DNA from: Polaromonas sp. | GTDB lineage: Bacteria; Pseudomonadota; Gammaproteobacteria; Burkholderiales; Burkholderiaceae_C | Direction of reading: 5' to 3' | Length of the DNA: 64,000 nt | NCBI RefSeq assembly: GCF_012927455.1 | Contig: NZ_JABBPE010000003.1 | Coordinates: 18,970-82,969, forward strand | Shown here: positions 331-57,463 of the stretch, piece after piece | Numbering within the stretch: position 1 is the first letter of the stretch | Layout of the letters: each line of letters opens with the position of its first letter | Translations under genes and position numbers: made by a program | The notes under the pieces: model-generated | Seen by the model: only the letters and a program-made list of their open reading frames with translations | What the model was told of the DNA's origin: nothing | Databases searched by the model: none

Positions 331-360
331 GCGTATTTTTGCGGCTCCTTGGAACATTAA

Positions 361-410
361 TTGCTATTATTTTGATAGCTGTTAGCGCCCGTATCTATTG
401 GGCTACAGCC
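361..410 (+). repeat. GCTAT-N7-ATAGC interspersed repeat, copy 1
   Basis: GCTAT-TATTTTG-ATAGC-TGTTAGCGCCCGTATCTATTGGGCTACAGCC. Confidence 0.85.
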
Positions 411-426
411 GTTTTTACAGCCTATT

Positions 427-681
427 TCAGCTCAATTCCGCAATCAGGTCGATGTACATCTGCATGGCTTCGTCCTGCGACGTGCCCTTGAGCTTGTTCC
501 AGGCGTCCCACTTGGCTCTGGCCACCATGTCGCTGAAACCGGGTTTTTGCTCAGTGTTGTCCCCCGTGCTGCCTTGCTTGTAGAGGGCGTAGATTTTCAG
601 CAGCGTGGCATTGTCGGGGCGCTCGCTGAGGTACTTCGAATCGGCCATGGCTTGGGCGAAGGTGGCTTGCAGGTCTGACAT
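427..681 (-). CDS. Acyl-CoA-binding protein (ACBP)
   Basis: 84 aa with ACBP motifs LLKIYALYKQGSTGD, KPGFSDMVARAKWDAW and AMQMYIDLI. Confidence 0.92.
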   Translation of the reverse strand: MSDLQATFAQAMADSKYLSERPDNATLLKIYALYKQGSTGDNTEQKPGFSDMVARAKWDAWNKLKGTSQDEAMQMYIDLIAELS

Positions 682-838
682 GGGAACGCTCCTTGTTCAA
701 AAAAATTGCACCCCGAAGAAGGGCTGGGGTCGTGGGGCTATCTTAGCGACCGCCTATTTTCCAAGGCAGGCGGCCTTGAGTTGCTGCTGCGGGGTTGCGG
801 TGAGTTGCGGTGGGCAGCACCAAGTCAGGGCTACTTAA

Positions 839-887
839 TGGCTGCAACCCAATGAAATCGTGCGCAAGTAGCTATGCTTTTAATAGC
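839..887 (-). repeat. GCTAT-N7-ATAGC repeat, copy 2
   Basis: Reverse complement GCTAT-TAAAAGC-ATAGC-TACTTGCGCACGATTTCATTGGGTTGCAGCC. Confidence 0.8.
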
Positions 888-900
888 TAACCAAGACCCA

Positions 901-1668
901 TCAGGGGGCAAAGCGGCGCGCGGCGACCTCCAGCAAGCCGTCAAAAATCAGGTTGTCCACCAGCTCAAACCTGACCGACAGGCTGGGTGCCATCTTCCAG
1001 CCGGCGCCGCCGGTCATGATGCACTCGGGCGTCTCGCCGCAATGGCGCGTGACGTTTTCCACCATGCGCTGCACCGCGCCGGCGATAGCGAAGGTGCCGC
1101 CGCTGGTCAGCGCGTCACTGGTGTTGGTGGGAAAGTCGCGCACGTCGCCGGTGGGCACATGCAGGCCGGCGGTGCCCGATTCAAGCGCGCGCAGCATGAT
1201 GCCGTGGCCGGGCAGGATGATGCCGCCCAGGAATTTTCCGGAGGCGTCAATCGCCTCGACCGTCACCGCCGTACCGACCATGACCACCACGCAGGGCTTG
1301 CGGCTGCCACGCGCCAGCAGGCGGTGGTACGCCCCTATCATGGCGACCCAGCGGTCGGCTCCCAGGCGCGCCGGGTGGTCGTAGCCGTTGCTCAGGCCGG
1401 CTTCCTGCGGACTTGACACGACCCAGACCGGGGCGACGTCCCACAGGTCCATCTGCTCTGCCAGGCGCCGCTTGATGGCGTCGCCCGCGACGATGCAGCC
1501 GAGAATTCGCGACGGTGGCGGCAAGGCGCGCCATTCGTCCTCGGCCAACCGGTCGATGTTTTCCAGAAACACCGCGCCTTGCGCCAGCAGCTTGGCGCCC
1601 ACCACGGGCGTGTCGTAGTGGGCCCATTTCAGGCGGGTGTTGCCTACGTCAAGCGCTAGAAAGGTCAT
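901..1668 (-). CDS. coaX: Type III pantothenate kinase
   Basis: [16 protein letters not shown] motif, [28 protein letters not shown]. Confidence 0.92.
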
Positions 1669-4873: not shown

Positions 4874-6139
4874 CTAAGAGGAAGCCTGAGCAGCGCGGGC
4901 ACGCCGTGCGATCGGCCAATCCCAAGGTTTGACGAGGGGCGCAATCTCGCGCGCCACCGCCTCTACGTGGTCCAGTTCCGAATCCATCAGGCCGGCGTTC
5001 AACGTGAGCCGCATCATCGCGCGCTTGCTGCTGGTGGCCGGCGCGCAAAACATGGCCGAAAACACGTCGCGCTCCTCCAGTCGGTCACGCAGCACCATGG
5101 TGTCGCATTCCATGCCAACTTCAAGCGCGATGATTTGCTGGCTTCCCTGGTGAATCGGGTAACCCAGATCACTCAGGCTGGCGCGCAGGCGCGTAGTGTG
5201 CGCCAGCAGGCGGCTGCGTGCCTCATCACTTTGGCGAATCACTTCCAGCGTGGCCGTCAGCCCGGCAATTTCGTGCGGCAGCAAGCTGGAGCTGAAAATA
5301 TTGGGAAAGCTGGTACAAAAAATGTAGTGCCGCATGTGCGCCGGTGCCGTGAAGAAACCGGCGCGCCCGGCAAAGGCTTTGGCCAGGCTGGCGGTGATGA
5401 AGTGCACCCGCTCCGACAAACCGAGCGCGGCGCACAGGCCGGCGCCCTGAGGGCCGTGGGTGCCCAGCGAGTGCGATTCATCGACCAGGATCATGCAGCC
5501 GTACTGTTCAGCGACCTCAACGACTTCCACCAGCGGGCAGAGCGCGCCTGTCGTGCTGTAGACGGAATCCACCACCACCAGGCCAGGTCCGGTCCTGGCA
5601 ATCATGCGCGCCAGGTGGGCCGGGTCGTTGTGCCGAAACGCACAGGCCGGCGCCCGTGCCGCATGGGCGCCCTCCCAGAGGGACGCATGCGCCAGCGAAT
5701 CCAGATAGACCGGTGTTTGCGCATCGGCAATGGCCTGCAGCAAACCCACATTGGCGGCATAGCCTGACTGGCAGATGAAGCCATCGTCTTTGCCAACCCA
5801 ATTGGCCAGGGCCAACTCCAGCGCACGGGCTGGATGCTGGTTGAGGTGAAACACGCCGGACTGGACCACAAACTCCTGCTGCTTGCGCAGCGCATCGACC
5901 TGGGCCTGGACGATGAGCGGGTGCCCCGTTAAGCCCAGGTAGTCATTGCCGTCCAGCCGTATTGCATTGGAGCCGGGCGGTTTGCCGTGCAGGACAAATT
6001 TTCCGCCCCACTGCTGATTCCAGCGCGGTGTGAAGTCGCGTGCGATGCGCTGGGTCAGCTGCGTTCCAAGGGAAGGGTTGCCCAAAGGGCGGGCGGCAGG
6101 GGCGAGTTTGCGTTCGAGTGCTTGCATGAAGAGTTCCAA
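4874..6139 (-). CDS. cqsA: Alpha-hydroxyketone autoinducer synthase (CqsA/LqsA/JqsA family, PLP-dependent AONS fold)
   Basis: GNDYLGL, VVDSVYSTTG, VDESHSLGTHG, PLP-lysine region ITASLAKAFAGRAG, IFSSSLLPHE. Clustered with CqsS/LqsR-like genes; no biotin genes nearby. Confidence 0.88.
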   Translation of the reverse strand: MELFMQALERKLAPAARPLGNPSLGTQLTQRIARDFTPRWNQQWGGKFVLHGKPPGSNAIRLDGNDYLGLTGHPLIVQAQVDALRKQQEFVVQSGVFHLNQHPARALELALANWVGKDDGFICQSGYAANVGLLQAIADAQTPVYLDSLAHASLWEGAHAARAPACAFRHNDPAHLARMIARTGPGLVVVDSVYSTTGALCPLVEVVEVAEQYGCMILVDESHSLGTHGPQGAGLCAALGLSERVHFITASLAKAFAGRAGFFTAPAHMRHYIFCTSFPNIFSSSLLPHEIAGLTATLEVIRQSDEARSRLLAHTTRLRASLSDLGYPIHQGSQQIIALEVGMECDTMVLRDRLEERDVFSAMFCAPATSSKRAMMRLTLNAGLMDSELDHVEAVAREIAPLVKPWDWPIARRARAAQASS

Positions 6140-17464: not shown

Positions 17465-20400
17465 ATGACCGACCTGTCCGCCGAATACAAAGCGCTCGCC
17501 AATTACCGCCCCACGCACAAGGTGCGTTTTGTCACGGCCGCCTCGCTGTTCGACGGACACGATGCCGCCATCAACATCATGCGGCGCATTTTGCAGGGCA
17601 TGGGCGCCGAGGTGATTCACCTGGGCCACAACCGCAGCGTCGAAGAGGTGGTGACGGCCGCCCTGCAGGAAGACGCGCAGGGCATCGCCATCAGCTCCTA
17701 CCAGGGTGGCCATGTCGAGTACTTCAAATACATGGTCGACTTGCTGAAAAGCCGCGGCGGCGAGCATATCCAGGTCTTTGGCGGCGGCGGCGGCGTGATT
17801 GTGGGCCCGGAAATCCGCGAGCTGCAGGCCTACGGCGTGGCGCGCATTTTCAGCCCCGAGGACGGCCAGAAGATGGGCCTGGCCGGCATGATTGGCGAAA
17901 TGGTGATGCGCTGCGACCAGGACCTGACCGGCTTTGCGCCGACCGACGTGCAAGCCATCGAAGGCCATGGCGAAATGGCCTGGCGGGCGCTCGCGCAACT
18001 CATCACTGCGCTTGAAAACGAGAAGGCTAATGAGGCTGTAGTCCAAGCGGTACGGGCGCAAGCTGCTATCAAAAAGATACCAGTTTTGGGCATCACGGGC
18101 ACCGGTGGCGCCGGCAAGTCATCGCTCACCGACGAGCTGATCCGCCGGCTGCGGCTGGACCAGAACGACCAGTTGCGCATCGCCATCATCAGCATAGACC
18201 CGTCGCGCCGCAAGAGCGGCGGCGCCCTGCTGGGCGACCGCATCCGCATGAACGCCATCAATCCCTGGAATTCACAGGCCCCCACGCTTGTCGCTTCGCG
18301 TGCCGCGCTGCCCCCCGAGGGGGCTGAACTTGCTTGGGGCGGCCCGGCGCTGCGTTCGTTGCCACCCGGCGGCCAACGTGTTTTCATGCGCTCACTCGCC
18401 ACGCGCGACTTCGGCTCGGAAATCAGCCCGGCCTTGCCCGACGTGATTGCCGCCTGCAAGGCCGCCGGCTTCGACCTGATCGTGGTTGAAACCTCCGGCA
18501 TTGGGCAGGGCGACGCCGCCATCGTGCCGCATGTCGATGTGCCGATGTATGTGATGACGCCGGAGTTCGGCGCCGCCAGCCAGCTGGAAAAAATCGACAT
18601 GCTGGACTTTGCCGAGTTCATTGCCATCAACAAGTTTGACCGCAAGGGCTCGCTCGATGCGCTGCGTGATGTGGCAAAACAGGTGCAGCGCAACAAGGAA
18701 GCCTGGAGCACGCCGGCCGATCAGATGCCGGTGTTTGGCACCATGGCCGCGCGCTTTAACGACGACGGTGTGACAGCGCTGTACCAGGCGCTCAAGCCCC
18801 GCCTGGCCGCGCTCGGCCTGCATTTTGAGGACGGCATACTGCCCGAGGTCAAGGTGCGCCACAGCACCAACCAGACCCCCGTGGTGCCGGCGGCCCGCAC
18901 GCGCTACCTGGCCGAAATTACCGATACCGTGCGCGGCTACAAGAAACGCGGCCACGAGCAAGCCACGCTGGCCCGCGAAATCCAGCAGTTGCGCGCCGCC
19001 GCCGCCATGCTGACCGCGAGCAAGCCCGACAAGGCCCGAGCCGCCGAGGCCGCCATCGACCTGGCGGTGCAGCGCGAGCAAATTCAGGAGCCGTCTGCTA
19101 AAAAACTGCTGGCCCAGTGGCCGTTGATGCAGAAAGCTTATGCCGGCGACGAATACGTGGTGAAGATCCGCGACAAGGAAATCCGCACGGCGCTGACCAC
19201 CAAATCACTTTCCGGCACCACCATTCGCAAGGTTTGCCTGCCCAAATACGAAGACCACGGTGAAATCCTCAAGTGGCTGATTCTGGACAATGTGCCCGGC
19301 AGCTACCCCTACACAGCCGGAACCTTTGCCTTCAAGCGCGAGGGCGAAGACCCGACCCGCATGTTCGCCGGCGAAGGCGACCCGTTTCGCACCAACACGC
19401 GCTTCAAGTTGCTGAGCGACGGCATGGCCGCGAAGCGCCTGTCCACCGCGTTTGACTCGGTCACGCTGTATGGCAACGACCCGCATGTGCGGCCTGACAT
19501 TTACGGCAAGGTCGGCAATTCGGGCGTGTCGATTGCCACGCTGGACGACATGAAGGTGCTGTACGGCGGCTTTGACCTGTGCAGCCCGACCACCAGCGTG
19601 TCCATGACCATCAACGGCCCGGCACCGAGCATTCTGGCCATGTTCATGAACACCGCCATCGACCAGAACCTGGAAAAATTCAAGGCCGACAACGGCCGCG
19701 AAGCCACCGATACGGAAGCCCTGAAGATCCGGGAATGGGTGCTGGAGAACGTGCGCGGCACGGTGCAGGCCGACATCCTGAAAGAAGACCAGGGCCAAAA
19801 CACCTGCATCTTCTCGACCGAGTTCAGCCTGAAAGTGATGGGCGACATCGCCCAGTACTTCGTGCACAACCGGGTGCGCAACTTCTACAGCGTCTCAATC
19901 AGCGGCTACCACATCGCCGAAGCCGGCGCCAACCCGATCAGCCAGCTGGCCTTCACGCTGTCCAACGGCTTTACCTTTGTGGAAGCCTACCTGGCGCGCG
20001 GCATGCACATCGACGACTTCGCGCCCAACCTGTCCTTTTTCTTCAGCAATGGCATGGACCCCGAATACACCGTGATGGGCCGCGTGGCGCGCCGCATCTG
20101 GGCCGTCGCCATGAAAGAGAAATACGGCGCCAACGAACGCAGCCAGAAGCTGAAATACCACATCCAGACCTCAGGCCGCAGCCTGCACGCGCAGGAAATC
20201 CAGTTCAACGACATCCGCACCACGCTGCAGGCGTTGATCGCGATTTACGACAACTGCAATTCGCTGCACACCAACGCCTTTGACGAAGCCATCACCACGC
20301 CGACCGAAGACTCGGTGCGCCGCGCCATGGCGATCCAGCTCATCATCAACCGCGAATGGGGCCTGGCGAAAAACGAAAATCCGTCACAGGGCGCTTTCAT

Positions 20401-20854
20401 CATCGAGGAGCTGACCGAACTGGTCGAAGAAGCCGTGCTGATCGAATTCCAGAACATCGCCGATCGCGGCGGCGTGCTGGGCGCGATGGAAACCGGCTAC
20501 CAGCGCGGTCGTATCCAGGACGAATCGATGCATTACGAAATGCTCAAGCACACCGGCGAGCTGCCCATCATCGGCGTCAACACCTTCCGTAACCCGCATG
20601 GCGACGCGGTTCACGACAAGCTGGAACTGGCGCGCTCGACTGATGAAGAAAAGCAGAGCCAGCTGACGCGGCTGGCCGACTTCCAGCAGCGCCACGCCAA
20701 AGAGTCACCGGCGATGCTCAAACGCCTGCAGACGGCGGTGATCGAGAACAACAACGTGTTCGAAGTGCTGATGGACGCGGTGCGCGTCTGCTCGTTGGGG
20801 CAGATCACCAACGCGCTGTTTGAAGTGGGCGGGCAGTACCGCCGCAATATGTAA
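17465..20854 (+). CDS. icmF: Fused isobutyryl-CoA mutase / MeaB-like GTPase
   Basis: B12-binding [10 protein letters not shown]-loop [36 protein letters not shown], and mutase barrel motifs [13 protein letters not shown] and [16 protein letters not shown] before ATG 17465. Confidence 0.95.
18032..18081 (-). repeat. GCTAT-N7-ATAGC repeat copy inside the icmF reading frame
   Basis: Reverse complement reads GGTAT-CTTTTTG-ATAGC-AGCTTGCGCCCGTACCGCTTGGACTACAGCCTC, matching the intergenic copies. Encodes [16 protein letters not shown] just before the P-loop. Confidence 0.8.
18278..18375 (+). repeat. GC-rich palindromic element inserted in frame in icmF
   Basis: CCCCCACGCTTGTCGCTTCGCG...GCCCCCCGAGGGGGC...GCTTGGGGCGGCCCGGCGCTGCG; perfect hairpin GCCCCC-CGA-GGGGGC. 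Encodes [30 protein letters not shown] between MNAINPW and [10 protein letters not shown]. Confidence 0.65.
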
Positions 20855-23002: not shown

Positions 23003-23052
23003 GGACGCAATCGTCGCATATTGCACGGCTGGTTTTTTATTGCCTCTAAAGC

Positions 23053-23100
23053 GCTACTGTTTTAATAGCTGCTTGCGCCTGTATTTATTGGGCTAGACCC
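23053..23100 (+). repeat. GCTAT-N7-ATAGC repeat, copy 4
   Basis: GCTAC-TGTTTTA-ATAGC-TGCTTGCGCCTGTATTTATTGGGCTAGACCC. Confidence 0.85.
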
Positions 23101-23290
23101 ATATTTCATTACTTATTTTGCGTTCAGACGGTCGGCTGGCCAGCCAGTGTTATGCCTTACATCCGCTTGCATGACCTGACCAAATGGCGCACTCTTTACC
23201 GGCGCTTAGCAGCCCCACCCGCCGGCTGGCCCGTTATCAGGCTTAGTGCCTCATCAAATGCGGCATGCAACACAGGAAGTGAGCGACCAC

Positions 23291-25738
23291 ATGACAACAT
23301 CCCGCATTGAATCCCGCACTGTTTTGGCAAGCCCTGGTTTTCGGTTTCTCCCGCGTTTTATGGGGAATTTGCTGCTGTTCGCCGCCCCGTTGCTGCTGTC
23401 GCTGGCAGCGCTGCCCTCCGTGGCATCGGCGCAGAACACCACGCAGCAAGGCGCGCCGCTAGACCCCCCGGGCCGCGTCGGCCGGCTCAGCCTGACCGAA
23501 GGGGCCGTGAGCCTGGCGCCGGCCGACCGCGACGGGCGGCCCGGCAACGATGCATGGACCCCCGCGTCGCTGAACAGGCCCCTGACCAGCGGCGACAAAT
23601 TGTGGACCGGCCCCCGCGCCCGCTCGGAACTGCACATCGGCTCAACCGCGGTACGCATGAGCGAGCAGACCAGCCTGGATTTACTGGCCCTGGACGACGA
23701 CGTGACCCAGCTGCGCCTGGCGCAGGGCAGCCTCAAGCTGCGCGTGCGCACCTTGTTTGAAGGCCAGCGCCTGGAAGTCAACACGCCCAACCTGGCTTTC
23801 GTCATTACCCAGCCTGGCGACTACCGCCTCGACGTCAACCCCGCCAGCGACGTCACCCGAGTGGTGGCGCAGTCGGGTGGCGGCGTGATTTATGGCGACA
23901 ACGGCGCGCGGGTAGAGCTGGGCAGCCAGCAACAGGCCAATTACAGCGGCACGCAACTGACACCCGCCGCACTGGGCGCCGCGCAACAAGACGGCTTTGA
24001 CGCCTGGGCCACGGCGCGCGACCGGCGTGAGGACCGGTCGGTGTCGGCGCGCTATGTGCCACGCGAAACCGTCGGCTACCAGCAACTCGACAACTACGGC
24101 GACTGGAGTCAGGATCCGACCTATGGCGCGGTCTGGCAGCCGCGCGCCGTACCGGCCAACTGGGCGCCCTACCGGGCCGGCCACTGGAGCTGGATAGCGC
24201 CCTGGGGCTGGACCTGGGTGGACGACGCGCCCTGGGGCTTTGCCCCGTTTCACTACGGCCGCTGGGCCCAGATCGGCCCGCGCTGGGCCTGGGTGCCGGG
24301 GCGCATGGCAGCGCAACCGGTCTACGCTCCGGCGCTGGTCGCCTTTGTCGGCGGCAGCAGCGGCGGCGTGAACTGGAACATCTCGATCGGCTCGGGCGGC
24401 CAAGCGCGGCCCGGCCTGGGCTGGTTCCCGCTGGCACCGGGCGAGGCCTACCGTCCGGCTTACCGAGCCAGTCCGCGCTACGTGACTCAGGTCAACCAGA
24501 ACATCGTGGTCAACAACACGGTGAACGTGACTAACATCTACCGCTACCAGCGCCAGCCCGCCGCCGTCACGGCGGCCAGCCGGGAAGACTTTGTGCGTGG
24601 CCGGCCTCTGCGTGGCAGCCAGCAGGTGCTGAGCGCCATCGACTTGAACCGCGCCCAAGTTGTGCGCGACCACAGCGCGCTGCCGCAGCGCCCTGAACGC
24701 AACGAGCGCGAACGGCCAAGGTCTGTTGCAGCCGCCGCCCTGCCACCTGCCGCGCTGGCCGCACGGCCTGTCGTGGGCAGTCGTGACGAGCGCCGCCAAG
24801 AAAGGCGCGATGACAGGCGGCCAGATGAAAACCGCGCTGAAAAACGCGATATGGGCCAGCCCGGTCGTATCGACAATCGTTTGAACGGCGCTGATGACGC
24901 GCGCCGCGCTGGCCGGCCCGACAACAGGGAGCGCAATGGCCGCACCCTGCCGCCCGTGTCTGCGCCGCCAGCCGCCGTCGGACTTCTGGGCGCGCAGCCA
25001 CCTGTCACCAAGCCGATGCCGGTCGCGCCGCCGGGCGCGCGTCCAGCCCAGTCGCCGCCTATTGACCGCACCGCCCAGGAAGCCGAACAACGGGCCAGGC
25101 GCGAGCAGCAGCGTCAGCAACGTGACGTAGACCGGAAGCAAAACGTCCAGCGCTCGCCAACTGAAGCATCGCCGGGGCAGCGCGCCATGCGTGAGCAGCC
25201 GCAGAAAAACGGCAACGCCCCGCCAGCGGCTGTGCAGGCGCCAGCCGCACCGGAGCGTCGTGCGGCAGAGCAGGCGCAGCAACTTGAGCGTGACCAGCAG
25301 CGCCAGCAAACCGAAGCGGCGCAAGGCCAGCGCGCCCAGCGCGAGCAGGTACAAAAGCAGCAGGCATCCGATCAGGCCGCGCTGGCACAGCGACAACAGC
25401 AACGTGCCCAACAAGACCAGCAGGGCCAAGCCCGTCAGCAACAGGCACAACAGCAACTGCGTGACCAGCAGCGCCAGCAAAACGAAGCAGCCCAAGGCCA
25501 GCGCACCCAGCGTGAGCAGGCGCAAAAGCGGCAGGCATCCGATCAGGCCGCGCAAGCACAGCAACAACAGCAACGTGCCCAACAAGACCAGCAACGCCAA
25601 GCCCGCGAACAGCCGCAACCGCCGCCACAGGAGCGGCAAAGGGCACCAGACCCGGAACGGCAGAAAAAGCGCCGGGCAGACACCGCCAACACAGCGGGCA
25701 ACCCCCAGCCTGATGGCGAGCCCAATCGCAACCGCTAG
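23291..25738 (+). CDS. Exported FecR-like/DUF6600-domain protein with a Pro/Arg/Gln-rich tail
   Basis: Hydrophobic leader, DPPGRVGRLS, FecR-like beta region (RLAQGSLKLRV, YRLDV), Trp-rich WAPYRAGHWSWIAPWGWTWVDDAPWGFAPFHYGRW, low-complexity C-terminus. Confidence 0.78.
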   Translation: MTTSRIESRTVLASPGFRFLPRFMGNLLLFAAPLLLSLAALPSVASAQNTTQQGAPLDPPGRVGRLSLTEGAVSLAPADRDGRPGNDAWTPASLNRPLTSGDKLWTGPRARSELHIGSTAVRMSEQTSLDLLALDDDVTQLRLAQGSLKLRVRTLFEGQRLEVNTPNLAFVITQPGDYRLDVNPASDVTRVVAQSGGGVIYGDNGARVELGSQQQANYSGTQLTPAALGAAQQDGFDAWATARDRREDRSVSARYVPRETVGYQQLDNYGDWSQDPTYGAVWQPRAVPANWAPYRAGHWSWIAPWGWTWVDDAPWGFAPFHYGRWAQIGPRWAWVPGRMAAQPVYAPALVAFVGGSSGGVNWNISIGSGGQARPGLGWFPLAPGEAYRPAYRASPRYVTQVNQNIVVNNTVNVTNIYRYQRQPAAVTAASREDFVRGRPLRGSQQVLSAIDLNRAQVVRDHSALPQRPERNERERPRSVAAAALPPAALAARPVVGSRDERRQERRDDRRPDENRAEKRDMGQPGRIDNRLNGADDARRAGRPDNRERNGRTLPPVSAPPAAVGLLGAQPPVTKPMPVAPPGARPAQSPPIDRTAQEAEQRARREQQRQQRDVDRKQNVQRSPTEASPGQRAMREQPQKNGNAPPAAVQAPAAPERRAAEQAQQLERDQQRQQTEAAQGQRAQREQVQKQQASDQAALAQRQQQRAQQDQQGQARQQQAQQQLRDQQRQQNEAAQGQRTQREQAQKRQASDQAAQAQQQQQRAQQDQQRQAREQPQPPPQERQRAPDPERQKKRRADTANTAGNPQPDGEPNRNR
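25288..25606 (+). repeat. 171-bp (57-aa) tandem duplication in the Gln-rich tail
   Basis: GCGTGACCAGCAGCGCCAGCAAA starts at 25288 and again at 25459; the protein repeats RDQQRQQ.EAAQGQR.QREQ.QK.QASDQAA. Confidence 0.8.
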
Positions 25739-25770
25739 GCCACGTCGCATTTTGGACCCCGCCTTAGTTC

Positions 25771-25820
25771 GCTATGTTTTTTATAGCTGACTGCGCCCGT
25801 AAAACATGGGCTAGAGGCTC
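25771..25820 (+). repeat. GCTAT-N7-ATAGC repeat, copy 5
   Basis: GCTAT-GTTTTTT-ATAGC-TGACTGCGCCCGTAAAACATGGGCTAGAGGCTC. Confidence 0.85.
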
Positions 25821-26218
25821 TTTTTAATCAGAATTTGTACTCAATCAAGTGACGCCCTGACCGGTGTCCCTGAACCGGTGCAGTTCCGGCGCAGTTCCGG
25901 TGCAGTTCATTCCCTCATTGAACGGAAGGCGCAGAACAGGTCATCAGCCGGTTCAGCAACGAGCCGCCGGGCCACTGCCCGCGTTTGACCGCACCGAATC
26001 TGACGGGCTGGCTGGCTGGCTGGCTTTGTCCGTCCGTTCACACCCAAGCCGCAGCTGCTTTGGAGATGGCGCGCCTGGCGCTTAACGCAAAACTACTTAA
26101 GGGTCTTACCCGGTAGCACGGCCCTGCCCCCGTAGCTACGATTGGCATAGCGTTTCACGGCGGTTAGCCTGCGCTTGTAGCGGTGCCCAGCCCGACTCCG
26201 TGAATTCAATCCCATCAC

Positions 26219-31660: not shown

Positions 31661-31695
31661 TGACACCGACCGTTGGGACAGCAAGACGGTGATTT

Positions 31696-31745
31696 GCTAT
31701 AAATTTAATAGCTGCTCGCGCAAGCAGCGCTTGCGTCAGGGGACT
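31696..31745 (+). repeat. GCTAT-N7-ATAGC repeat, copy 6 (divergent tail)
   Basis: GCTAT-AAATTTA-ATAGC-TGCTCGCGCAAGCAGCGCTTGCGTCAGGGG. Confidence 0.75.
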
Positions 31746-31763
31746 AAAATGCTTAAAAATTAC

Positions 31764-48462: not shown

Positions 48463-48521
48463 TTGAAGCCCCTGGTGCTGATCGCTTCGCCGCCACCCCT
48501 GCCATCAAGGCAGCTGTAATT

Positions 48522-48570
48522 GCTATTAATTCAATAGCTGCCTGCGCCCGTCCTGATTGGGCTAGAGCCT
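48522..48570 (+). repeat. GCTAT-N7-ATAGC repeat, copy 7 (between tsdA and ttrB)
   Basis: GCTAT-TAATTCA-ATAGC-TGCCTGCGCCCGTCCTGATTGGGCTAGAGCC. Confidence 0.85.
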
Positions 48571-48601
48571 TATTTGATACATAAATTCGGCTCAAACCCG
48601 G

Positions 48602-50860: not shown

Positions 50861-51087
50861 TTCAAATTCCTGTTTGCTGCAAGTTAGGCCTGAGGGCTTA
50901 CATGCATCCTAGGAGCGAAGGGGTCTTGAAGCTATTGGATGTTTGCGGCGGTCGCCTATACAAAGTTGCCAATTTACACAGAGTGGAATTTGTGGCAGGC
51001 AGTAGCTAGCCATGCAGCTGCGCGCAGGCCTGCGCGCCACAAGACTGCTGAGCGGCTTCCCAGAAGTGGCTCTCCAGCAGAACTTTT

Positions 51088-51136
51088 GCTATGTTTTTCA
51101 TAGCTACTTACGCCCGTATTTATTGGGTTATAGCCA
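51088..51136 (+). repeat. GCTAT-N7-ATAGC repeat, copy 8
   Basis: GCTAT-GTTTTTC-ATAGC-TACTTACGCCCGTATTTATTGGGTTATAGCC. Confidence 0.85.
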
Positions 51137-51299
51137 TTTTTCTTGTAAAAACATGACTTATCGCCCCCCATTGCAAGCGGTCTTTGCAGTTCGTCCCTGT
51201 TTCCGGGCAAAAAGCGCGGCAGTTCTGCGCGCGCTGATTGAAGCCGAACGCCACGCTCCAGGCGTCAAACAAAACCCCCTGACCTCTTTCCGCCAATCC

Positions 51300-52640: not shown

Positions 52641-52721
52641 GAACCAGGGGCCGGTGACCTGCTTGCTGCGGGCACCACCCGCAGCCGGCGGCTCGCCTGG
52701 ATGGACGGCAGCAGTCAATAT

Positions 52722-52769
52722 GCTATGTTTTTTATAGCAATTTGCGCACGTAAGCCCTGGGCTACCGGC
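52722..52769 (+). repeat. GCTAT-N7-ATAGC repeat, copy 9
   Basis: GCTAT-GTTTTTT-ATAGC-AATTTGCGCACGTAAGCCCTGGGCTACCGGC. Confidence 0.85.
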
Positions 52770-52826
52770 TTGAAACACCTCTACTCAAGGGTTTACTCTC
52801 AGTCTCGAAACCAATGTCCCGGGAAG

Positions 52827-52856: not shown

Positions 52857-52896
52857 ATGTGAAGAGCAACGAGTGGCGACGTTCGTTGTATAAATA

Positions 52897-52944
52897 AGCC
52901 GCAGCGCGCTAATTACGTGCGTTAGCAGCTATTTATTTAATAGC
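52897..52944 (-). repeat. GCTAT-N7-ATAGC repeat, copy 10
   Basis: Reverse complement GCTAT-TAAATAA-ATAGC-TGCTAACGCACGTAATTAGCGCGCTGCGGC. Confidence 0.8.
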
Positions 52945-52996
52945 AAATGCAATGCCAAAAAACTGATTTCTTCGACGAAGAACATGAAGCAAGCCG

Positions 52997-57309: not shown

Positions 57310-57393
57310 AACTACTGCAACGCAATGGTCCAAATACCCAGGAAACAGCATTGTTGCCGCAGCATCGGTTGAATTCGGATCTGCCTGTAAATT

Positions 57394-57441
57394 GCTATTT
57401 ATTTTATAGCTGCTTATGCCCGTGTATGTTGGGCCATGGCC
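57394..57441 (+). repeat. GCTAT-N7-ATAGC repeat, copy 11 (between convergent DASS and tcuB)
   Basis: GCTAT-TTATTTT-ATAGC-TGCTTATGCCCGTGTATGTTGGGCCATGGCC. Confidence 0.85.
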
Positions 57442-57463
57442 TTGTTCTGCACCCGATATCGAG

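Follow-up and report, generated by a model that had tools for sequence, protein, structure and literature searches.

Introduction

The common view is that small bacterial repeats come into genes by insertion, as do Rickettsia palindromic elements (RPEs), Beta-proteobacterial repeat elements (BREs) and miniature transposable elements with inverted repeats (MITEs), or, in the case of uptake sequences, build up in them as very short motifs. Here, we describe a repeat with the core GCTAT-N7-ATAGC, an antisense copy of which lies in frame within icmF, the gene for the fused isobutyryl-CoA mutase, in a 64,000 nt stretch of Polaromonas sp. DNA (contig NZ_JABBPE010000003.1, positions 18,970 to 82,969), referred to as the window. 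RPEs, which PMC1779305 mentions and which were reportedly found in protein-coding genes by Ogata and colleagues in 2000, are insertions of 100–150 nt that add 30–50 foreign residues. Ectopic short-patch gene conversion and the template-switch mutagenesis of quasi-palindromes are mostly described between close paralogues or within one imperfect palindrome, and we know of no case in which either process was described as writing a dispersed intergenic repeat into coding DNA unrelated to it.

The uptake signal sequences and DNA uptake sequences (USS/DUS) of the Pasteurellaceae and Neisseria have a core of 9–12 nt (~30 nt extended) and occur about once per kb, with 35–65 % of them in genes (PMC2817400). 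Within genes they arise in place without a change in length, in favoured reading frames and with some residues shifted (Findlay and Redfield 2009, PMC2817400). The BRE is a repeat of the Comamonadaceae and Bordetella that is sometimes found wholly within coding sequences (Hot et al. 2011, PMC3110155). A description of the GCTAT-N7-ATAGC family was not found in the literature; the BRE, which was found there, is a different element.

The repeat copy within icmF

The product of the window icmF matches the IcmF of C. metallidurans (PDB 4xc6) over its full length (phmmer E=0, 1820 bits) and includes the B12 domain, the MeaB-like GTPase and the mutase barrel, all in one chain. The embedded repeat copy (Table 1) lies 563 nt into the 3.4-kb coding sequence and is not extragenic, unlike the family norm. 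It is read in the icmF frame and codes residues E190–P206, which correspond to the native helix and the linker to strand 1, and its peptide (ending [T/I]KKIPV) directly adjoins the P-loop stretch. In an AlphaFold model, residues 190–202 form a helix with a predicted local distance difference test (pLDDT) score of 91–97, followed by a strand (residues 207–212) and then by the P-loop. On this model, the tail of the repeat is predicted to code the native helix of IcmF, and the core the end of the helix and the linker A201–P206.

The core in icmF (GCTATCAAAAAGATACC, 18065–18081) surfaces at one mismatch from GCTAT-N7-ATAGC. Nine of the ten bases in its arms match, and the Pro206 codon CCA blocks ATAGC, leaving the palindrome short of a perfect 5+5. 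When a profile was built from the nine window copies outside icmF, the gene segment was matched from 18082 to 18028 on the minus strand, over model positions 5–59 of 62, with 36.4 bits and E=1.6e-10. A further profile, built from 121 copies of other genomes only and derived partly from pattern-selected copies, matched 18079 to 18027, also on the minus strand (38.1 bits, E=5.2e-11), and ranks the icmF copy above four of the window's own intergenic copies.

The codons of the segment are locally atypical when judged against usage in 19 window genes, where GCT is used at 0.10, GTA at 0.05, CAA at 0.26, CGG at 0.16, ATA at 0.05, CCA at 0.09, GTT at 0.08 and TTG at 0.14, and 8 of the 60 rare codons at conserved residues in the window icmF fall within this 24-codon stretch. 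The icmF peptide was re-encoded 200,000 times by the window codon usage and each version was scored against the repeat matrix, giving a mean of 5.2 (sd 6.9) and a maximum of 39.7, compared to 52.4 (z about 7) for the observed segment. Since the observed score is far above the resampled maximum, the nucleotide match is not a by-product of the peptide, and it is confirmed that the match of the icmF segment to the repeat is genuine and goes beyond what the peptide dictates. Accordingly, it is of negligible probability that the resemblance arose by chance or from composition, or that selection for the peptide was its sole cause. The native peptide does by itself lift the expected score, as the resampled mean of about +5 compares with random window positions that nearly all score well below zero, but none of the 200,000 resamples reached the observed score, the E values of both profiles are very low, and the match recurs in a second gene and among some 30 species (see below). 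Synonymous codon identity, measured in sliding windows over 10 species, ranked the segment 1056 of 1086 and so did not mark it out, in a set where carriers and non-carriers were mixed and where strong codon bias inflates identity throughout.

The preliminary description of this locus had proposed that the segment is the reverse complement of the repeat, core and tail, that it lies in frame just before the P-loop, that its codons are locally atypical and that it is helical, and on the profile matches, the translation of 18028–18082 and 18089–18124, the codon usage and the structure prediction all of this holds. A scan of 17800–18400 for promoters and terminators found no promoter-like site and a single terminator-like site that was not above shuffles. 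The sequencing runs that contain the sequence were only metagenomes and metatranscriptome contigs without strand information.

No change in length

The alignment of the window IcmF to 4xc6 is ungapped through the segment, with 25 residues paired with 25, and in 120 homologues and 160 orthologous loci the segment has an identical length and a related peptide. The homologous helix is DPELVSALHAQAKAAAVPVLG in 4XC6, SVVQAVREQAASKKVPVL in Limnohabitans and ALVDAVRNQAAGRKIPVL in Polaromonas JS666. Relative to its orthologues, the window IcmF gains no residues from the GCTAT-family copy. By these sequence comparisons, the icmF segment is not an insertion, its peptide being homologous to the native helix.

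The native helix already equals 6 of the 13 residues that the repeat specifies, with two further conservative matches, and the antisense frame of the repeat, ..[P/A][L/V]AQxIRAQAAIxxIA, reads as almost the same peptide as the native ..ALVQAVRxQAAxKKIP. As the native IcmF helix is so close to the repeat-coded peptide, little had to change. The preliminary description had assumed an unrelated helix of similar length in other IcmF proteins, a possible replacement of native sequence by the element, and a parallel with RPEs entering coding sequence. The first assumption fails, as the helix is homologous and of identical length in 4XC6 and Limnohabitans. Replacement survives in part, in that native DNA was overwritten, but no unrelated helix was replaced and nothing was inserted. 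The RPE parallel does not extend to the GCTAT copy, which adds no residue, and belongs instead to a BRE located at 18276–18368 in the same gene.

Distribution of the embedded copy

The icmF segment of 160 orthologues was scored against the repeat matrix, with codons resampled for each. Some 30 species of Polaromonas scored above expectation (z 3–8), as did a Rhodoferax-like group (L241, L004 and L006), where L numbers denote fetched loci. In other genera, including Limnohabitans, Ramlibacter and Cupriavidus, z is about 0 and the same helix is written in ordinary codons, and repeat-free lineages do not share the nucleotide segment. At the DNA level, the match is confined to most Polaromonas lineages and the Rhodoferax-like group, and it is in these taxa that the repeat occurs. 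When one genome per species was scanned for the core and tail pattern, the matches listed were almost all from Polaromonas, with a few from Burkholderiales metagenome-assembled genomes (MAGs).

The icmF DNA of a typical carrier reads GCT GCT A[CT]N AAA AAG ATA CCN GTT, and that of the best carriers (L223, L243 and L225) GTA GCC CAA CAA ATA CGG GCG CAA GCT GCT ACT AAA AAG ATA CC. On a tree of IcmF, the state is patchy and graded: several subclades have a strong match, one has a fading match, and nested clades have none. The nested clades without the icmF copy include JS666 and P. aquatica, although P. aquatica has intergenic copies. Amino-acid changes in several lineages go towards residues encoded by the repeat. 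A T to I change (ACT to ATC/ATT) completes GCTAT in several lineages, a P to A change yields ATAGC or GTAGC in L009, L237 and L209, and a V to A change yields TAGCCC in the L223 clade.

A further family copy, often degenerate, lies directly 3′ of the icmF stop codon in many Polaromonas species (L167, L169, L170, L172, L173, L191, L217, L223, L225 and L245), where it is inverted relative to the in-gene copy; the window has no such downstream copy. After the icmF stop, several species (L179, L232, L214 and L201) share another short recurrent motif, TGCTACTTAACCCATAGTTTG(G/C)CCAAAAG.

A second gene, LhgO, and other genes carrying the repeat

The 181 family matches in the fetched loci were screened for a position inside long open reading frames (ORFs) with a high GC content at third codon positions (GC3). 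Of the 181, 21 lie inside ORFs and 14 of these are the icmF site itself. The remainder include an antisense copy (42.7 bits, LNTPLAQAERAQSAIILIAE) at 4913–4967 of L144/L246 (Polaromonas sp. P2-4), in the gene for an LhgO-like FAD oxidoreductase. Antisense copies in further stop-to-stop ORFs lie between the domains of an FtsX-type permease (L149, 7369–7425), in the C-terminal tail of a glyoxalase-family protein (L132, 1591–1647) and in the N-terminal part of a ZIP transporter, where the copy may precede the true start (L162, 6254–6310). One copy, in the stop-to-stop ORF of a DAO-family enzyme (L084, 6170–6220), is in the sense frame (AIDSVAVCARVLGATG). All four of the antisense copies in ORFs other than icmF share the icmF frame, GCT ATN NNN NNN ATA GCN, which reads ..LAQxxRAQAAIxxIA.

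The LhgO copy was followed in 80 fetched orthologues (L246–L325). Nearly all of these, whether from carriers or from outgroups, have 154 residues between the flanking anchors; three loci have 158 or 166. In Polaromonas and some Rhodoferax, LhgO has SPLAQAECAQSAIxLIAED written in rare codons, with scores of up to 70 and z of 4–8, whereas LhgO from Variovorax, Pseudorhodoferax, Ramlibacter and others has SPLARARCTPDGIVLTMxD in ordinary codons, with z about 0. About six LhgO residues have shifted to those encoded by the repeat. As in icmF, the quality of the match is graded across Polaromonas and the match is absent in outgroups, the strand and frame are the same, and the length is unchanged. This replicate in an unrelated gene excludes chance, and it also excludes an origin of the family from icmF, so that the direction of transfer was from the family to the gene.

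Origin of the embedded copy

We favour, with no more than even confidence, the explanation that the repeat sequence was copied over existing icmF codons by short-patch gene conversion or template switching. The donor would have been one of the many genomic repeat copies and the event would have occurred in the ancestor of most Polaromonas, with a strand switch possibly seeded at the palindromic core. The copy would have survived where a usable antisense frame spells a tolerable peptide. As the antisense frame of the repeat gives nearly the native peptide, overwriting would be tolerable to selection on IcmF, which would accept synonymous and conservative changes (T to I, L to V, V to A, P to A in some lineages). 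In later lineages the copy may then have been retained, improved (in the window and in the L223 clade) or lost by reversion to preferred codons (in the clade of JS666 and P. aquatica). An old event that decayed unevenly and was at times reinforced would fit the numbers. Identity at four-fold sites between clades is 56–71 %, hence these sites are not saturated and an old event with partial decay is feasible. The copying mechanism, its timing, the number of events and the status of the icmF copy as a tolerated passenger are what we infer, and several points weigh against them. No donor copy or conversion-tract boundary was identified. The outgroup DNA, taken to represent the state before the event, resembles the repeat only to about 55–65 %, less than ordinary RecA-dependent conversion needs. 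It is at the conserved positions of the family that the matches cluster, and point-mutation drive or selection for a motif gives the same pattern. The rare codons of the core also outlast the others, as ATA is kept in 0.68 and GCT201 in 0.59 of 45 other Polaromonas icmF genes, from species that were not pre-selected by z, versus a mean of 0.22 for other rare codons, a hint that the copy is still being maintained and is not carried along passively. Finally, the IcmF tree is a rough neighbour-joining tree built with the segment masked, many of the genomes are MAGs, and the context was judged from crude gene calls.

Several of these points would suit an accumulation of the motif in place, by point mutations under molecular drive or selection wherever the encoded peptide tolerates them, which we consider unlikely but far from negligible; by analogy with USS/DUS, the cause might be a bias in DNA uptake, or the repeat might serve as the site of some abundant DNA-binding protein. 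Such a process fits the unchanged length in both icmF and LhgO, the match quality graded across species, the core, which is the most informative part, being the best kept, and the use of a single antisense frame, as seen for uptake sequences in coding regions (PMC2817400). It also fits half-sites that are each invariant without compensatory pairs, as expected for protein binding. However, at ~55 nt and 40–70 bits the unit is far beyond the 9–12 nt core of known uptake sequences and could be put together by point mutation only with difficulty, genes contain just about 4 % of the copies outside icmF, compared to 35–65 % for USS/DUS, and nested clades have fully lost the icmF copy yet kept the intergenic family. 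Insertion into icmF of an RPE-like mobile palindromic element that replaced an unrelated helix of similar length is improbable, for though the family is dispersed, with copies inside several genes, and LhgO has exchanged residues for repeat-encoded ones, each position of the icmF peptide has its homologue in the IcmF of repeat-free genera and of 4xc6, at identical length, neither a target duplication nor a change in length is seen, and the element folds weakly. The reverse direction, in which the intergenic family was born from a fragment of icmF and the gene copy is the progenitor, is more improbable again. It draws on the outgroup icmF DNA, whose score of about -11 is among the top few of 128,000 window positions, the best non-family position scoring -0.8. 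It was rejected on the LhgO replicate, the same embedded copy being present in that unrelated gene, and, in addition, the codons are ordinary in outgroups and in nested Polaromonas clades, icmF has changed towards the family consensus, in its amino acids too, and in the icmF frame that consensus reads CAA TAA, a stop codon.

An intergenic repeat of ~55 nt thus occupies orthologous, length-conserved sites in at least two conserved enzymes across a genus, on one strand and in one frame, and draws synonymous sites and some residues towards its own sequence. It is possible, although doubtful, that this genus-specific 55-nt repeat is actively propagated onto existing DNA, remodelling an IcmF helix and an LhgO beta-hairpin without indels. 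Biased conversion, template switching, or a drive based on uptake or binding could be responsible, in place of transposition or simple point-mutation drift. If general, the phenomenon would mean that dispersed repeats rewrite coding DNA in place, and it would explain local islands of rare codons and lineage-specific residue changes near functional sites, the IcmF P-loop among them. Rare codons clustered in a GC-rich gene are not necessarily a sign of horizontal transfer or translational pausing. The strong, decayed and absent copies across species offer a natural system for the study of ectopic conversion or motif drive.

The GCTAT-N7-ATAGC family

Exact GCTAT-N7-ATAGC sites number nine in the window, versus 0.03 expected, and the density of the family is about 10 copies per 64 kb. 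The repeat unit of ~60 nt is GCTAT-N7(AT-rich)-ATAGC-tgcttgCGCCCGTa-N5-tTGGGCTAnAGCC, followed by a T-rich end. The context could be classified for 52 intergenic copies of the 181 matches, with 26 between convergent genes, 22 between co-directional genes (in either orientation) and four between divergent genes; 48 of the 52 are at gene 3′ ends. The family therefore behaves like a repetitive extragenic palindromic (REP)-type element with a preference for the 3′ ends of genes. An Rfam scan of the whole window found no family.

Table 1. Positions in the window of icmF, the repeat elements within it and the intergenic copies of the repeat
Feature	Position	Strand	Basis or remarks
icmF, fused isobutyryl-CoA mutase	17465..20854	+	1129 aa; ORF and phmmer match to PDB 4xc6
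Polaromonas intergenic repeat, antisense, full-length, in frame in icmF	18028..18082	-	nhmmer, 121-copy profile, codon resampling
Core palindrome GCTAT-CAAAAAG-ATACC	18065..18081	.	codes A201 I202 K203 K204 I205 P206
Repeat tail AGCTTGCGCCCGTACCGCTTGGACTACAGCC (minus-strand letters)	18028..18064	-	codes 11 residues; alignment of copies
P-loop coding stretch, 12 residues	18089..18124	+	translation of icmF
BRE, GC-rich, in-frame insertion in icmF G-domain loop	18276..18368	-	4xc6 gap, blastn, BRE alignment
Family copy, intergenic, just 3′ of acyl-CoA-binding-protein gene	359..417	+	both profiles
Family copy, intergenic, just 3′ of gene 901-1668(-)	836..890	-	both profiles
Family copy, intergenic; orthologous copy in L001, absent in L003	23048..23110	+	both profiles
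Family copy, intergenic	25767..25829	+	both profiles
Family copy, intergenic, weaker	31692..31750	+	25.3 bits (window profile), 29.6 bits (121-copy profile)
Family copy, intergenic, best in window	48518..48582	+	66.5 bits (121-copy profile)
Family copy, intergenic	51086..51143	+	both profiles
Family copy, intergenic, convergent with copy 52888..52949	52717..52777	+	both profiles
Family copy, intergenic	52888..52949	-	both profiles
Family copy, intergenic, between convergent genes	57389..57449	+	both profiles

The consensus folds, on both strands, into a core stem of 5–6 bp and a weak second stem of 4 bp, without supporting covariation. Four intergenic copies were folded, of which three gave fold z scores of -1.2 to -1.8 and one a score of +0.4, and the icmF copy scored +0.3 to +0.4 whichever strand was folded; no long, stable hairpin like that of an RPE appears in these folds. 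Compensatory pairs were not found in the core of the 121 copies, where the half-sites are each invariant, in a set biased by the many copies fetched by exact pattern. Long perfect palindromes of the form ACGGGCGCAAGCAGCTAT-N7-ATAGCTGCTTGCGCCCGT, with compensating changes in the arms, occur in L084, L145 and L147, and the common form of the repeat may be a one-armed derivative of such a long perfect palindrome.

The position of some family copies is conserved between species, while other copies decay in place. At the orthologous intergenic sites compared, neither target duplications nor clean presence/absence edges were found, and synteny breaks at the copies compared. A copy lies 25–30 nt upstream of the start of the same gene in the window (23048–23110) and in L001 (15648–15703) and is absent from L003 (about 14930); synteny among the three stops exactly at the position of this copy. 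Family copies may mark rearrangement boundaries.

Inverted copies at 359–417(+) and 836–890(-) flank the gene for a 90-aa acyl-CoA-binding protein (427–696, minus strand), and there is a second convergent pair at 52717–52777 and 52888–52949. That the copies bracketing 427–696 delimit a small transposon was considered and rejected, the ORF being that of an ordinary acyl-CoA-binding protein. Elsewhere in the window, long ORFs on opposite strands overlap at 23246–25738(+) and 23681–25750(-), with the same GC pattern and a GC3 of about 0.76, in very GC-rich DNA.

A BRE insertion downstream in icmF

The icmF gene contains a further element, 200 nt downstream of the GCTAT copy, that does add residues. 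At 18276–18368, a BRE adds about 31–37 residues relative to 4xc6, seen as a gap at query residues 268–304, and it is absent from 4xc6 and from most homologues. This segment scores 73 against the reverse complement of the published Bordetella BRE, versus 25 in the other orientation, and blastn found dispersed and tandem matches to it at non-icmF Polaromonas loci (L121, L105 in tandem, L102, L004, L109 and others). The loop that it forms has pLDDT values below 50 and is predicted to be disordered. In homologues (P0001–P0120 and L166–L245), the same loop is mostly 10 residues long, others having 20–55, and at least four recurrent repeat-derived peptides are found in it, namely one of 16 residues, PAQAAEPALPGGRRAAPSGGSEPHAVGSVGA (BRE in the other orientation), LPPLGEGxDGG..PSPSGGGS and VRPEPVEGL..TGSARTD. 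The IcmF G-domain loop is a hot spot for insertions, and the BRE at 18276–18368 is a true RPE-like in-frame insertion in icmF.

Comparison with known systems

Like the RPEs, the GCTAT family is dispersed and has copies in ORFs, in frame and at places tolerated by the protein, and, in addition to its intergenic copies, it is found in several genes (icmF, LhgO, the FtsX-type permease gene and the DAO-family gene). Unlike an RPE, the GCTAT copy is ~55 nt, adds no residue, encodes a homologous peptide and is weakly self-pairing. The BRE differs from the GCTAT family in being GC-rich (about 69 %), 75–91 nt long and often tandem, and the two are unrelated in sequence; at 18276–18368, similarity to the published BRE goes together with dispersed and tandem copies.

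The short length of the GCTAT copies, their presence in hundreds per genome, and their concentration, in either orientation, at the 3′ ends of genes and in the gaps of convergent gene pairs are shared with REP sequences and bacterial interspersed mosaic elements and with MITEs such as Correia/NEMIS and ERIC. However, the consensus of the 121 copies lacks the GTAG or CGTC head of REP/REPIN sequences and is not an imperfect palindrome of 20–40 nt. In place of the strong hairpin of REP sequences and MITEs it has a 5-bp palindrome with a 7-nt AT-rich spacer and an asymmetric tail of 35 nt.

Like USS/DUS, the GCTAT repeat is genus-specific and occurs both between and within genes, and its in-gene copies preserve length and use a preferred frame. 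Unlike them, it has a unit of ~55 nt in place of a short core, there is about one copy per 6 kb, and most copies lie between genes. With ectopic conversion and template switching it shares a length-preserving replacement templated elsewhere, and its palindromic core could seed a strand switch. Found in two genes and across a genus, the overwriting of coding DNA at constant length by a long dispersed repeat is a variant of the known occurrence of repeats in genes and of an assimilation like that of uptake sequences.

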